Counted from the first letter of the stretch, positions 24,935-38,558 are shown. The stretch is DNA of 42,699 nt from a virus (IMGVR_UViG_2870490042_000003), one strand, 5' to 3'. The notes: generated by a model from the letters alone, not told the origin. Numbers and translations are program-made.

Positions 24935-25228
24935 ATGAAAAAAATGTTGTTTTCTGCCGCTCTGGCAATGCTTATTACAGGATGTGCTCAACAGACGTTT
25001 ACTGTTGGAAACAAACCGACAGCAGTAACACCAAAGGAAACCATCACCCATCATTTCTTCGTTTCGGGAATTGGACAGGAGAAAACTGTTGATGCAGCCA
25101 AAATTTGTGGCGGCGCAGAAAATGTTGTTAAAACAGAAACCCAGCAAACATTCGTAAATGGATTTCTCGGTTTTATTACTTTAGGCATTTATACTCCACT
25201 GGAAGCGCGTGTGTATTGCTCACAATAA
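24935..25228 (+). CDS. bor: Bor lipoprotein (serum-resistance lipoprotein, Iss-like)
   Basis: 97 aa from ATG 24935; MKKMLFSAALAMLITGC lipobox; lambda Bor-like sequence. Confidence 0.9.
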   Translation: MKKMLFSAALAMLITGCAQQTFTVGNKPTAVTPKETITHHFFVSGIGQEKTVDAAKICGGAENVVKTETQQTFVNGFLGFITLGIYTPLEARVYCSQ

Positions 25229-26669: not shown

Positions 26670-26885
26670 TTACTCTCCCCGTGCCGCCTTACGACGGTCC
26701 TCTCTGATTTTGAAATACAGGTTAGTCAGATATGTCAGCAGCCCAAACAGCAGACTCCCCAGCACGCCTATTGCCGCCCACTGAGACGGGGAAACCCTGT
26801 CCAGCAACTGCAGGAACCAGTAGCCCGTTCCCACCGCTGACGTGGTGTATGACACACCTGTTGTGATTTTTTCCATCTGGTCCAT
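26670..26885 (-). CDS. S: Holin, phage 21 S-like pinholin with dual start (MDQM)
   Basis: 71 aa from ATG 26885; …[50 protein letters not shown] resembles S21; the track's ORF extends to an upstream alternative start. Confidence 0.8.
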
Positions 26886-27192: not shown

Positions 27193-27381
27193 TCACTCCG
27201 GCTCAGTTGCACCACTGACCACCACATCACCTTCTGCTGCAATCGCCTGCATCAGGGTATAAGGGGTTATGGCCACCGGACTACCAAACGGCTGCCAGCC
27301 CTCTTTCAGTTTATGTGTCAGCTTTTCCGCAAGATCTGACGGCGGCGCCGCCCTGACAACATCATAGTGTTTAAATGCCAT
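27193..27381 (-). CDS. Small conserved lambdoid-phage protein upstream of the holin
   Basis: 62 aa from ATG 27381 (MAFKHYDVVRAAPPSDLAEKL…); position between the Q/tRNA region and the holin. Confidence 0.5.
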   Translation of the reverse strand: MAFKHYDVVRAAPPSDLAEKLTHKLKEGWQPFGSPVAITPYTLMQAIAAEGDVVVSGATEPE

Positions 27382-27641
27382 GGTTCTTTCCACCATCTGA
27401 AAAATAATTCTTTAAAATACCAGACATGTAACACAGAAAAAACACAAAACCATACCTTAAATAGAAACCTGATCATCAAGCAGATATGCATGGATAAACT
27501 ACAAGACGAGATATAAACCACCCTGCATTTAAATAAACAATAAACAACATCAGAAAAATAATTCTGCTCTATGGTTTATATTCAAAAATATCATTTATAC
27601 TTTTCAGAACATCACCAGCAAGGCATAAACAAGGAAGCTAA

Positions 27642-27977
27642 ATGAAGTGGATTGTAATTGATACAGTTATCCAGCCATCATGCGGAATATCTTTTTCAGT
27701 CATATGGAGTAAAGTAAAATTAATAATCTGGTATCAATCGGATGCTTTCTTACCTCCTGAAAGTATATTTACACTGACTCACACAGGTATCATGCTCAAT
27801 AACAAAGTGCTACCTGTAACCATTTACAACGTAGTACCATTCAATAAAACATTCTGGAATTTAATCAAAAACAGCCAGGAATGCCCTACAAATACAGATA
27901 ACGTATTGAATGAATGCTTTAATAACCGTTGCATTCTGCAAATATGTCCTTATGGACTAAAACAACAAAGTCCATAA
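27642..27977 (+). CDS. Hypothetical protein (111 aa) in an AT-rich cargo island, convergent with late transcription
   Basis: ATG 27642 with AAGGAAG SD 4 nt upstream; surrounding 27.40-28.00 kb is markedly AT-rich; no family recognised. Confidence 0.45.
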
Positions 27978-28012
27978 GGAGTTTACTCACATCTGACAAA
28001 ATCAATATAAAC

Positions 28013-28216
28013 AGCCCCTCCGGAGAGGGGCTGGAGAGTGGCGCTATGTGCCATTGCATGGTGCCGGGTGCCTCCCGGTGAATTCAGTACCAGCACCTGA
28101 ATCCGCGATTATCCCATATACCTACTCGCTGATTACCCCTCCGCACAGGGGGATTCACCATGCGAAATTTTTTAACAAACTTCCCGCCGGCCAGACAATA
28201 ATCGCCAGCCTGAATT
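28013..28216. repeat. Copy 1 of a diverged ~205-bp direct repeat beginning with GC-rich hairpin AGCCCCTCCGGAGAGGGGCT
   Basis: Shared blocks with copy 2: AGCCCCTCCGGAGAGGGGCTG, CATGGTGCC..GCCTCCCGGT.AATTCAG, GGGGGATTCACCATGCGA, TTTTTAACAAA, GCCAGACAAT.ATC. Confidence 0.7.
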
Positions 28217-28475
28217 ATGAGCAACGTGGCATTTTACGGGAAAACTGTTTTCTGCAGTAAAAAGGCCCGCCGGAGCGAGCCTGGAAGGATAGCGGTCATG
28301 TGATGCCGGTTTCCCGGTAACTCAGCATCGGTATCTGAGTCAACGTTTTCTCTACTGGGTCATTTCCGATACGTTCCGCCTTCCGGCAGACTTTCATCAC
28401 GTCAGAAAATATAGCACCCTGAGTAACAGGACAGTACTCAGAATTCAGGAAACTGTGACACATCCTGCACAGAAA

Positions 28476-28685
28476 AGCCCCTCCGGAGAGGGGCTGAAGT
28501 ATAGCCTAATTTCTGTCTGTCGCATGGTGCCAGGGGCCTCCCGGTAAATTCAGCCTGTCTACTGAATTTGCATGTTCTCTGGATCATACACTTTGCCAGA
28601 TGCCCCGCCGCTGAGGGGGATTCACCATGCGATGTAATTTTTAACAAATTCTCCGGCAGCCAGACAATCATCAAGCTGTGGAATT
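28476..28685. repeat. Copy 2 of the diverged ~205-bp direct repeat
   Basis: Same conserved blocks as copy 1; the hairpin read on the - strand is followed by TTTTCTGTG. Confidence 0.7.
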
Positions 28686-29010: not shown

Positions 29011-29086
29011 TGGTGGCCCTTGCTGGATTTGAACCAGCGACCTGGCGATTATGAGTCGCTCGCTCTCACCACTGAGCTAAAGGGCC
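29011..29086 (-). tRNA. tRNA with CAU anticodon (tRNA-Ile2 ileX/ileZ-like, or Met), encoded CCA
   Basis: 76 nt folded by hand into a canonical cloverleaf: acceptor GGCCCTT/AAGGGCC, D-stem GCTC/GAGC, anticodon loop CT-CAT-AA, T-stem GCTGG/CCAGC, T-loop TTCAAAT, discriminator A, CCA. Confidence 0.85.
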
Positions 29087-29125: not shown

Positions 29126-29149
29126 AAAAAACCCGCTCGGCGGCGGGTT
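29126..29149 (-). terminator. Candidate tR' (late terminator downstream of pR')
   Basis: - strand AACCCGC-CGCCGA-GCGGGTT followed by TTTTTT, about 50 nt downstream of the candidate pR' -10. Confidence 0.55.
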
Positions 29150-29229: not shown

Positions 29230-30051
29230 TTACCTAGTTACCTTTTTTAACTGCCGCTCAGCCCATGCTTCTTCAATATCAAACCGGGTCACCAGCGCAT
29301 CATAGAATTTCTTAACTGTTTTTTCCCATGACGCGCGTGTTATCTGGTTTGTCACCTCGCATATAGCATTAAATGTCTCCGTTGATGGTAGTCTTTCATA
29401 GCCACGACCACCACAACGCTGGCAGTCTCTGATAACAGGCATACCACGTTTTACCGACTCTTCACGATGAATGGCGACACCACGCCCACGGCAATCCTTA
29501 CAGGCGGTGGAAACCTCACCCTTTCCGCCACACTCCGGACAGGCAACTTTTACCACCTCCCTGACTTTTTTCCATTCTTCCCAGTAAGACGAATACACAC
29601 CTTTCGTACACTTTGCCCATACCGGCGGCTTACCATCCGGATACTGGACCTTGTTTGTAAAAACTACGCTTTCAATAAATTTTTCCCCATAGCAACAAGG
29701 GCACTGCTTTTTACTCGCTGCGCTGCGGGCATAATCCTCAAAAGCGTACGAAGCCATAATGCGCATCACTAACGGTTTTATTTCTGCCGGAAGTTTTCTC
29801 AACGCCGCAACACGATCGCACCGACTGAGTGCATAATCTGCCAGTAATTCTGTTGCCCGCGCCCTGTCATTCATACTGATGCCCATTTTCCCCAGGAACG
29901 CAGAAAACCCCATCTCAGCCCGATTCTGTGTCATGCCCTGCGCGGCCATCACATCAGTGATACTCAGCGCATCTTTTGACGTTGAGGCCGATGCATCGGT
30001 CAGGCCAGGGGATTTTGGGGAGTAGTATTTCGGTAAATCTTCCAGTTTCAT
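29230..30051 (-). CDS. Antitermination protein Q (QuuQ-like, zinc-binding Cys clusters)
   Basis: 273 aa; MKLEDLPKYYSPKSP… N-terminus and CxxC clusters (CPCCYG, CPECGG, CKDCRG, CQRCGG); ATGA overlap with rusA; followed by pR'/tR'/tRNA. Confidence 0.75.
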   Translation of the reverse strand: MKLEDLPKYYSPKSPGLTDASASTSKDALSITDVMAAQGMTQNRAEMGFSAFLGKMGISMNDRARATELLADYALSRCDRVAALRKLPAEIKPLVMRIMASYAFEDYARSAASKKQCPCCYGEKFIESVVFTNKVQYPDGKPPVWAKCTKGVYSSYWEEWKKVREVVKVACPECGGKGEVSTACKDCRGRGVAIHREESVKRGMPVIRDCQRCGGRGYERLPSTETFNAICEVTNQITRASWEKTVKKFYDALVTRFDIEEAWAERQLKKVTR

Positions 30052-31934: not shown

Positions 31935-32090
31935 TTACTCCTCAGGTTCGTAAGCTGTGAAGACAGCGACCTCCGTCTGGCCGGTTCGGATTCGTACCTC
32001 GCAGAGGTCTTTCCTCGTTACCAGTGCCGTCACAATGACGGTTAAACAGATGACGATCAGGGCGATTAACATCGCCTTTTGCTGCTTCAT
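31935..32090 (-). CDS. hok: Hok/Gef-family type I toxin (HokD/RelF-like)
   Basis: 51 aa MKQQKAMLIALIVICLTVIVTALVTRKDLCEVRIRTGQTEVAVFTAYEPEE; an in-frame upstream ATG at 32147 would give a 70-aa form. Confidence 0.85.
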   Translation of the reverse strand: MKQQKAMLIALIVICLTVIVTALVTRKDLCEVRIRTGQTEVAVFTAYEPEE

Positions 32091-32349
32091 AGCCTGCTTC
32101 TCCTTGCCTTTCGGCACGTAAGAGGCTAACCTAGATTTGCCGTTCATAGATTGAGCCTCAGATTAATGTTAAGCGTCTTGCAGGACGCGTAATGTTAACT
32201 GGGGCTTTTCTCTATCTGCCTTTTGGTGTTCATGCCTGAGACAGATAGCCTCAAGCACCCGCAGTCATTCTACTTAACTAAGATTTCCCCGCAAACCGTT
32301 TTTGTCCGGCACAGTAAATATCCAACTAAACCAATGGCGTTCGCTGTAT

Positions 32350-37801: not shown

Positions 37802-38208
37802 TAGATAACCAACGAAGCTAAGGTTGGTAATTAAGGAGTTCTCCACGGGTGAGGTGGAGTGCGTGCGCCGGACACGGGTGAGCATCCGGCACTGACAGTT
37901 TACTGAAAGGATATTTCCCTGAAAAGTCAGACCATAACGCGAAAGCGCACGGCGAGGTAGCTGGTTCATAGATAGCCTGTCGTTAAATTTTCGTCGACCG
38001 TGCGCTTCCGGTTGTGGCAATCCGCGAAATGGCGCGGCGGTAAGTATGGCGGGGTTATTCCTTCCCCCGTTGAGGACACCGGGTTGTCAGGTTGACCATA
38101 CGCTTAAGTGACAACCCCACTGCAACGCCCTCTGTTATCAATTTTCTGGTGACGTTTGGCGGTATCAGTTTTACTCCGTGACTGCTCTGCCGCCCTTTTT
38201 AAAGTGAA

Positions 38209-38348
38209 TTTTGTGATGCGGTGAATGCGGCTAAGCGCACGCGGAACAGTTAAAACCAAAAACAGTGTTATGGGTGGATTCTCTGTATCCGGCGTTAATT
38301 GTTAACTGGTTAACGTCACCTGGAGGCACCAGGCACCGCATCACAAAA
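38209..38348. repeat. Pair of perfect 15-bp inverted repeats (TTTTGTGATGCGGTG / CACCGCATCACAAAA) separated by 110 bp
   Basis: Left arm 38209-38223, right arm 38334-38348; the right arm lies about 20 nt upstream of the kilR-like ATG. Confidence 0.6.
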
Positions 38349-38369
38349 CTCATTGTTGAGGGCGCGATA

Positions 38370-38558
38370 ATGAAAACGTTATTACCAAACGTTAATACGT
38401 CTGAAGGTTGTTTTGAAATTGGTGTCACTATCAGTAATCCTGTATTTACTGAAGATGCCATTAACAAAAGAAAACACGAACGGGAGTTATTAAATAAAGT
38501 ATGCATTGTTTCAATGCTGGCCCGTTTACGTCTGATGCCAAAAGGATGTGCACAATGA
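38370..38558 (+). CDS. KilR-like small protein (Rac-type cell-division inhibitor candidate)
   Basis: 62 aa from ATG 38370 (GAGGG SD); …NVNTSEGCFEIGVTISNPVFTEDAINKRKHERELLNKVCIVSMLARLRLMPKGCAQ; the KilR call is from memory and position. Confidence 0.45.
   Translation: MKTLLPNVNTSEGCFEIGVTISNPVFTEDAINKRKHERELLNKVCIVSMLARLRLMPKGCAQ

Follow-up and report, generated by a model that had tools for sequence, protein, structure and literature searches.

The AT-rich island of a lambdoid prophage carries an intact gene that is very probably iraL, a paralogue of the RssB anti-adaptor gene iraM

An intact open reading frame of 111 aa lies at positions 27642–27977 (+ strand) of the window, that is, of the whole 42,699-nt stretch of viral DNA analyzed here (IMGVR_UViG_2870490042_000003). 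We identify it, with high confidence, as iraL, a prophage-borne paralogue of iraM that encodes a small cytoplasmic anti-adaptor acting on RssB and stabilizing sigma-S. The gene is already known and is found in its usual place, and the feature is real but ordinary. A first-pass annotation of the same DNA had seen here a cargo gene of the lysogen, and this part of its reading stands; the description of the gene as an orphan, and the proposal of an effector, toxin or anti-defence factor, do not.

The segment at 27400–27990 has a GC content of 32.3%, compared with 50.6% for the whole window (591-nt windows: standard deviation 4.8%, z = −3.8), and it is the lowest-GC 591-nt window of the entire 42.7 kb. 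Its 1-kb flanks have GC contents of 50.0% and 51.5%, which bears out the initial impression that the region at 27.40–28.00 kb is much more AT-rich than the phage DNA around it. The limits of the island were set by alignment with Stx1a and Stx2a phages, both of which have its flanks, and fall at approximately 27382 and 28010. Within these limits the GC content is 32.4% (31% upstream of iraL), and the content consists only of iraL and its upstream region. The left border is the start codon of a truncated nanS-p/DUF1737 gene (27196–27381, − strand), an N-terminal remnant of the prophage sialate O-acetylesterase gene nanS-p (yjhS), and the right border is the terminator hairpin of an STnc100 small RNA. 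The DUF1737 stump comes from the PGAP annotation on identical DNA in strain M217, which was transferred only where ORF coordinates coincide; other iraL prophages and Stx phages have a full-length SASA esterase at the same position. Upstream of iraL, a 21-nt direct repeat (CAnCATCnGAAAAATAATTCT) occurs at 27391–27411 and 27545–27565. The two copies are identical at 19 of 21 positions, lie 154 nt apart and are both kept in E. coli CFT073; they could be regulator sites or the relic of a duplication.

The reading frame opens with ATG and is preceded, at a distance of 4 nt, by the ribosome-binding site AAGGAAG (27631–27637, + strand), just as the first reading of the sequence had it, and the several cysteines remarked on at that stage number five (residues 14, 81, 92, 97, and 102). 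The protein is identical to IraL of CFT073 at 109 of 111 residues (98%), the two substitutions being I25V and T98I (V25 and I98 in the window copy). The literature sets apart two paralogues, iraM of K-12 and iraL of uropathogenic CFT073, whose matches do not overlap, and iraL has been defined by its nucleotide identity to the CFT073 gene, with thresholds of ≥95% for the entire coding region and ≥96% for the promoter region (PMC4045071). Here, 332 of the 336 bases of the coding sequence are identical to CFT073 (98.8%), two mismatches are located at positions −100 to −1, and identity is ~98% over a stretch that begins 260 nt before the gene and ends 80 nt after it. Because the coding-region identity lies above 95%, the gene is called iraL. 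K-12 IraM is 63% identical to the window protein.

The protein also passes the NCBIfam model for IraM (NF007393, the IraM/IraL/RssC anti-adaptor family; 162 bits, cut-off 121), with residues 1–110 covering profile positions 1–113 of 114, and the listed records of the megablast matches are annotated "anti-adapter protein IraM." Together with the 98% identity to CFT073 IraL, this match contradicts the earlier statement that the gene belongs to no recognizable family. In the copy of Pfam searched (PF11183.13 for PmrD), no usable match was found for the window protein or for its IraM relatives, which fits the failure to recognize a family from the sequence. Precomputed Pfam labels assign PF11183.15 (PmrD) to IraM/IraL proteins; the discrepancy seems to reflect the different releases of the model.

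In CFT073, the iraL mRNA begins with ACATCACCAGCAAGGCATAAACAAGGAA, as determined by 5′ RACE (PMC4045071). This string starts at position 27609 of the window (+ strand), 33 nt before the ATG, and the transcription start, with a 33-nt 5′ UTR, was placed there by homology to CFT073. The hexamers of a probable sigma-70 promoter (27575–27601, + strand) were read from the sequence upstream of the RACE start site. With the start-site sequence ACATCACCAGC at 27609, the −10 hexamer would be TATACT at 27596–27601, and the likely −35 hexamer, TTTATA at 27575–27580, is one base off its CFT073 counterpart, with T at 27579 where CFT073 has C (TTTACA). The 5′ UTR differs from that of CFT073 at two bases. A simple promoter scan made no call at 27575–27601. 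A −35 point mutation has been reported in JJ1886 iraL2, a second copy of the gene, and in other strains, with uncertain effect on expression (PMC4045071); the T-for-C difference between the window copy and CFT073 may be a new point. Among complete genomes, exact 45-mers carrying the window −35 allele were counted 283 times and those carrying the CFT073 allele 308 times, so most iraL genomes have other variants in this stretch.

No alignment was obtained between the upstream regions of the window gene and K-12 iraM. A PhoP box was sought by eye upstream of iraL, and only a single GGTTTA half-site (27573–27578) was found; the idea of PhoP control was dropped. H-NS silences iraM, and given its low GC content the iraL island is likely an H-NS target as well. 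As for other conditions, the iraL product is increased in a CFT073 fur mutant (PMC7157518), and iraL mRNA rises by 1.6 log2 upon a shift from 23 to 37°C (PMC12890032).

At the structural level, the protein matches IraM residues 1–78 in PDB entry 8twd_A by sequence (E = 8.7×10−32). An AF2 model computed with 10 close sequences was poor (pLDDT 58), and a 34-sequence alignment was used instead, with a mean pLDDT of 88.7. When compared by Foldseek, the latter model superimposes on 8twd_A with a TM score of 0.92 and an rmsd of 1.1 Å over 78 columns, and the TM score against PmrD is 0.73. In the model, IraL consists of a PmrD-like antiparallel β-barrel with a C-terminal helix (residues 1–78) and a Cys4 tail (residues 79–111). 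Both the 8twd_A match and the model place the N terminus in the first β-strand of a cytoplasmic barrel, with no signal peptide.

The function of IraL has been studied in CFT073 and other strains. IraL copurifies with RssB; of the two RssB domains, a two-hybrid assay found IraL bound to the N-terminal receiver domain only and IraM to both (PMC4045071). [quoted passage not shown] Conversely, K-12 given iraL with 100 nt of its native promoter has more sigma-S in log phase, and CFT073 iraL is transcribed in growing cells from its own sigma-70-type promoter (PMC4045071). In the crystal structure of IraM(1–78) with RssB, the β-barrel lies over the receiver domain of RssB, on its α4-β5-α5 face, and shuts sigma-S out (PMC10844676). 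Among the 14 RssB-contact residues of IraM listed in that study, 10 are identical in the window IraL. The five residues of interface cluster I, on the side of the RssB N-terminal domain, are all identical, and the differences (T13S, L75I, H63N, and I64V) are located in clusters II and III, whose contacts are with the C-terminal domain and the linker. As far as residue identities can tell, this pattern fits the reported binding of IraL to the N-terminal domain only.

For the CFT073 protein, it has been shown that IraL binds RssB, an adaptor resembling a response regulator that delivers sigma-S (RpoS) to ClpXP for degradation, and that sigma-S is thereby stabilized and its level raised in exponential phase. 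By analogy with the IraM–RssB structure, the barrel (residues 1–78) would sit on the α4-β5-α5 face of the receiver domain and keep sigma-S out. The window copy should do the same in the lysogen, an expectation based on 98% protein identity and on the conserved promoter, start site and ribosome-binding site.

Several other readings of the gene were weighed. An orthologue of K-12 iraM, induced through PhoP under Mg2+ starvation and binding both domains of RssB, would account for the PGAP product name and for the match to the NCBIfam IraM model; it is very unlikely, given the 63% identity to K-12 IraM vs. 98% to IraL, an upstream region that does not align with K-12 iraM, a position in the lambdoid Q-to-lysis slot as against the region beside e14 in K-12, and the separation of iraL and iraM matches in the earlier survey (PMC4045071). 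The structural relationship to PmrD raises another alternative, in which the protein would be a connector shielding some other phosphorylated response regulator instead of RssB. PmrD, the PhoP-PmrA connector (PDB 4HN7), has the same unusual β-barrel (TM score 0.73), both proteins bind the receiver domain of a response regulator, and the precomputed labels list PF11183 for the family. The two proteins nevertheless share only ~15% identity, the window protein has no match to the Pfam PmrD model searched (PF11183.13), PmrD chains of 81–88 residues are too short to hold a Cys4 tail, and the partner of PmrD is PmrA, whereas IraL copurifies with RssB and alters sigma-S stability (PMC4045071). We regard a PmrD-like role as highly improbable and treat the relation as one of fold only.

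The chance that the gene encodes a secreted effector, a toxin or an anti-phage-defence factor, as the first-pass annotation had suggested, is close to negligible. Such a reading draws on the generic look of lysogenic conversion (AT-rich DNA, a promoter of its own, the opposite strand), and it runs against the near-identity of the protein to IraL, a cytoplasmic protein that controls RpoS proteolysis in the host and whose action on RssB is established (PMC4045071), against an N terminus that forms the first β-strand of a cytoplasmic barrel instead of a signal peptide, and against Pfam and NCBIfam scans in which no rival family appeared. A different kind of alternative accepts the identification and holds that iraL, although intact, is effectively silent in this prophage, being neutral cargo with a weakened −35 element and bound H-NS. 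The T for C at 27579, with which the best −35 candidate reads TTTATA in place of TTTACA, is in its favor, as are the −35 mutation of uncertain effect in JJ1886 iraL2 and other strains (PMC4045071), the GC content of 31% upstream of the gene, and the decayed copies found in YDC107 (frameshift) and Ec-2844 (IS2 in the promoter). Yet the ORF is intact, as are the −10 hexamer, the start site and the ribosome-binding site, and the 45-mer with the window allele is about as frequent among complete genomes as that of CFT073 (283 and 308). We therefore consider silence unlikely, while granting it some weight, and retain an iraL gene that is intact and active on RssB as the preferred reading.

The C-terminal tail of the family was compared across a wider set of proteins. 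A profile search of 1.84 billion representative proteins returned 95 relatives at E ≤ 0.001, and the sources that could be traced include Salmonella salamae, Citrobacter, Klebsiella pneumoniae, Enterobacter, Cronobacter, Franconibacter, Pantoea, and others. Among 34 full-length members, drawn from Escherichia, Salmonella, Citrobacter, Klebsiella, Enterobacter, Cronobacter, Franconibacter, and Pantoea, with identities down to 20%, the only invariant positions are M1, P12, W72, C81, C97, and C102. C92 and P103 are each conserved at 97%, and C14 of IraL is not conserved. All 34 members have at least four cysteines in the tail, and 32 of them fit the pattern C-x8-13-C-x4-7-C-x4-C; the other tail positions vary more than those of the core. 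In IraL the motif occupies residues 81–103 (C81, C92, C97, and C102; window 27882–27950, + strand), and it can be written as CP-x9-10-C-x4-6-C-x4-CP[YF]G, a spacing that resembles that of a CCCH zinc finger. When a tail-only profile was run against PDB sequences, the matches, to tristetraprolin (TTP)-type CCCH zinc fingers, all fell below threshold (E 0.016–1.3) and amount to no more than a lead.

The tail was removed from IraM for crystallization and described as less conserved and flexible, and we found no metal site mentioned in the two versions of the structure paper that were searched (PMC10844676). We found no solved structure that covers the IraL/IraM tail; in the AF2 model with the 34-sequence alignment, its pLDDT is 72–80. 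Tentatively, the C-terminal 30 residues of IraL and its IraM relatives could be a conserved four-cysteine module that binds metal or responds to redox state, although we hold this to be somewhat less probable than the opposite. In general, four cysteines conserved within ~22 residues of a cytoplasmic protein would most likely serve to bind a metal. The family-wide conservation of the Cys4 tail may be a new point. If the module is real, the stability or activity of the anti-adaptor could be tied to zinc, iron or oxidative state, and a tail that binds metal would be an extra input to RpoS control, outside the scope of the structural work so far.

Transcription on the other strand may bear on when iraL is expressed. 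Two tandem copies of the STnc100 sRNA lie next to the island, both on the − strand, at 28003–28191 (copy 1, convergent with iraL; 132.5 bits) and at 28467–28660 (copy 2; 138 bits). Both match Rfam RF02076 (gathering score 47) over its full length, model positions 1–206 of 206, and both belong to an ~465-nt duplication (repeat families D1–D4). The hairpin GCCCCTCCGGAGAGGGGC ends each copy, and these are its only two occurrences, where 0.01 is expected by chance. A PGAP pseudo-CDS called at 28048–28173 (+ strand), overlapping copy 1, is probably spurious. In Stx2 phages, STnc100 lies downstream of stx2 (PMC12370729; bioRxiv 10.64898/2026.05.13.724894), and the STnc100 copies here occupy the position of the stx genes in Stx phages.

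The hairpin that closes copy 1, a GC-rich stem of 9 bp at 28012–28033, starts 35 nt past the stop codon of iraL. When both strands were folded, the stem is followed on the − strand by GUUUAUAUUGAUUUUG, a U-rich tail with a terminator call, and on the + strand by GAGAGUGGCG, which has no U tract. The hairpin is thus the terminator of the convergent STnc100 and not a canonical terminator of iraL, although it may still stop or stabilize iraL transcripts. The GC hairpin that had been noted after the gene does exist at that place; as a terminator, it belongs to the − strand RNA.

The direction of late transcription is set by the late antiterminator gene Q (29230–30051, − strand) and runs antisense through iraL. 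The order along the − strand is Q, a terminator, tRNA-Ile with anticodon CAU (29011–29086), a DUF3927 gene, the two STnc100 copies, iraL in opposite orientation, DUF1737, and the holin gene (26670–26885). The lysozyme and spanin genes near iraL are also on the − strand; with iraL on the + strand, the gene does point against the late operon, as first reported. Four terminator-like hairpins, all on the − strand, are arranged in series between Q and the lysis genes, at 29149–29130, 28495–28476 (in STnc100 copy 2), 28282–28263, and 28033–28012. The first is probably tR′, the terminator of the short PR′ transcript. The same stretch contains 13 terminator-like sites in 2.4 kb, compared with 2.9 expected, and a Q-modified polymerase would need to pass all four − strand terminators. 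Upon induction, Q-antiterminated late transcription would read through these terminators and run antisense across iraL. We infer from this arrangement that convergent Q-dependent transcription may switch iraL off when the prophage is induced, so that its expression would be limited to the lysogenic state.

The genomic context makes iraL a classic moron, an AT-rich cassette of 630 bp, of a composition unlike that of the phage, in the lambdoid Q-to-lysis cargo slot. On one side are Q and its tRNA, on the other the lysis cassette. Stx1a phages have both flanks in common with the window and unrelated DNA between them, and some Stx2a phages have a divergent allele. Transcription from a promoter of its own is indicated by the RACE start in CFT073, and on the + strand no U tract follows the downstream hairpin. 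The proposal of lysogenic-conversion cargo, made at first pass, holds in these respects: an AT-rich moron with a probable promoter of its own, opposed to the late operon and probably expressed in the lysogen, in a lambdoid prophage. Other morons, bor/iss, lom, and stx, are likewise AT-rich, have autonomous promoters, lie between modules, and are present or absent among related phages, and stx occupies the same Q-to-S cargo region. The difference is in the products, which are surface or secreted virulence factors for bor/iss, lom, and stx and a regulator of host proteolysis for iraL.

By megablast of the segment, iraL is present in 1445 of 5426 complete E. coli genomes (~27%), and in every genome inspected it is located at the same slot, between STnc100 and nanS-p. 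Four other E. coli genomes, chosen across the identity range, have iraL in this slot on different backbones, with a DNA methyltransferase gene after Q or none, one to three tRNAs, and a full-length or truncated nanS-p. The gene thus travels with different lambdoid prophages, a check that had been suggested from the outset. Copies of the segment with 100% identity are also found in four deposited phage records. Decayed iraL loci were also encountered, with a frameshift in YDC107 (L011:3743-4077) and an IS2 insertion in the promoter region in Ec-2844 (L012:2181-3409).

Comparison with the known carriers shows both shared and separate features. In a strain with identical DNA, the integrase end of the prophage adjoins potC, and the iraL prophage of CFT073 is the potB island, at the same site. 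The CFT073 gene (c1429; Hryckowian et al. 2014, mBio, PMC4045071) has the same promoter region, start site and ribosome-binding site, and the two prophages share the potC/potB chromosomal site and the slot between STnc100 and the nanS-p remnant. They differ in the head and packaging genes, which are HK97-like with a P27-family terminase in the window and λ-like with an S49 protease and a decoration protein in CFT073, and in the RNA genes, one tRNA and two STnc100 copies in the window and three tRNAs in CFT073. IraM of K-12 (b1160; PDB 8TWD, PMC10844676) belongs to the same family, with the same fold and Cys4 tail. Mg2+ starvation induces IraM, and IraL is active in log phase; the K-12 gene lies beside e14, and the window iraL is in the Q-to-lysis slot.

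A further relative is the iraM-like gene of some Stx2a-converting phages, for example Stx2_EH2246 (LC567837), which occupies this slot in the same orientation, with the STnc100 hairpin on one side and nanS-p on the other. It is 73% identical to the window iraL in protein and 77% in nucleotide sequence, with an alignable upstream region. It encodes 107 aa, lies directly downstream of stx2AB, and represents a separate allele lineage. Located at L004:4964-5287 with a consensus TATAAT upstream, it can be counted as a third lineage of iraM/iraL.

Other cargo was observed elsewhere in the prophage. The serum-resistance lipoprotein gene iss/bor (24935–25228, + strand) also runs against the late genes, in a region of 38–40% GC, and is a second moron. 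A hokD toxin gene with sok antisense RNA (RF01794, 112 bits) is located at 31935–32260 (− strand), and the DicF sRNA (RF00039, 77 bits), at 38144–38558 (+ strand), lies upstream of dicB and ydfD; hokD/sok and DicF-dicB-ydfD are Qin-like cargo of the early region. At the left end, positions 1–2295 contain an IS3-family element that abuts the tail-fibre gene, with orfA at 1082–1408, orfB at 1405–2295, and an ALIL frameshift pseudoknot at 1363–1479, together with an inverted partial copy of orfA at 1–327. Strain M217, which otherwise matches, has a group II intron where the window has the IS3 copies.

The AT-rich "orphan" of this prophage is thus a known regulator, and the PGAP label "IraM" hides the distinction between iraL and iraM. 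The iraL locus is a further case of a temperate phage rewiring a core stress pathway of its host. With iraL on board, a prophage increases the RpoS level of cells during growth, an effect that for uropathogenic E. coli and Shigella has been linked to tolerance of stress and to fitness in the niche. Because iraL occupies the slot of stx, beside STnc100, in about a quarter of complete E. coli genomes, the region from Q to the lysis genes is worth reading as a unit. A Stx2a toxin phage that also stabilizes RpoS might merit attention.
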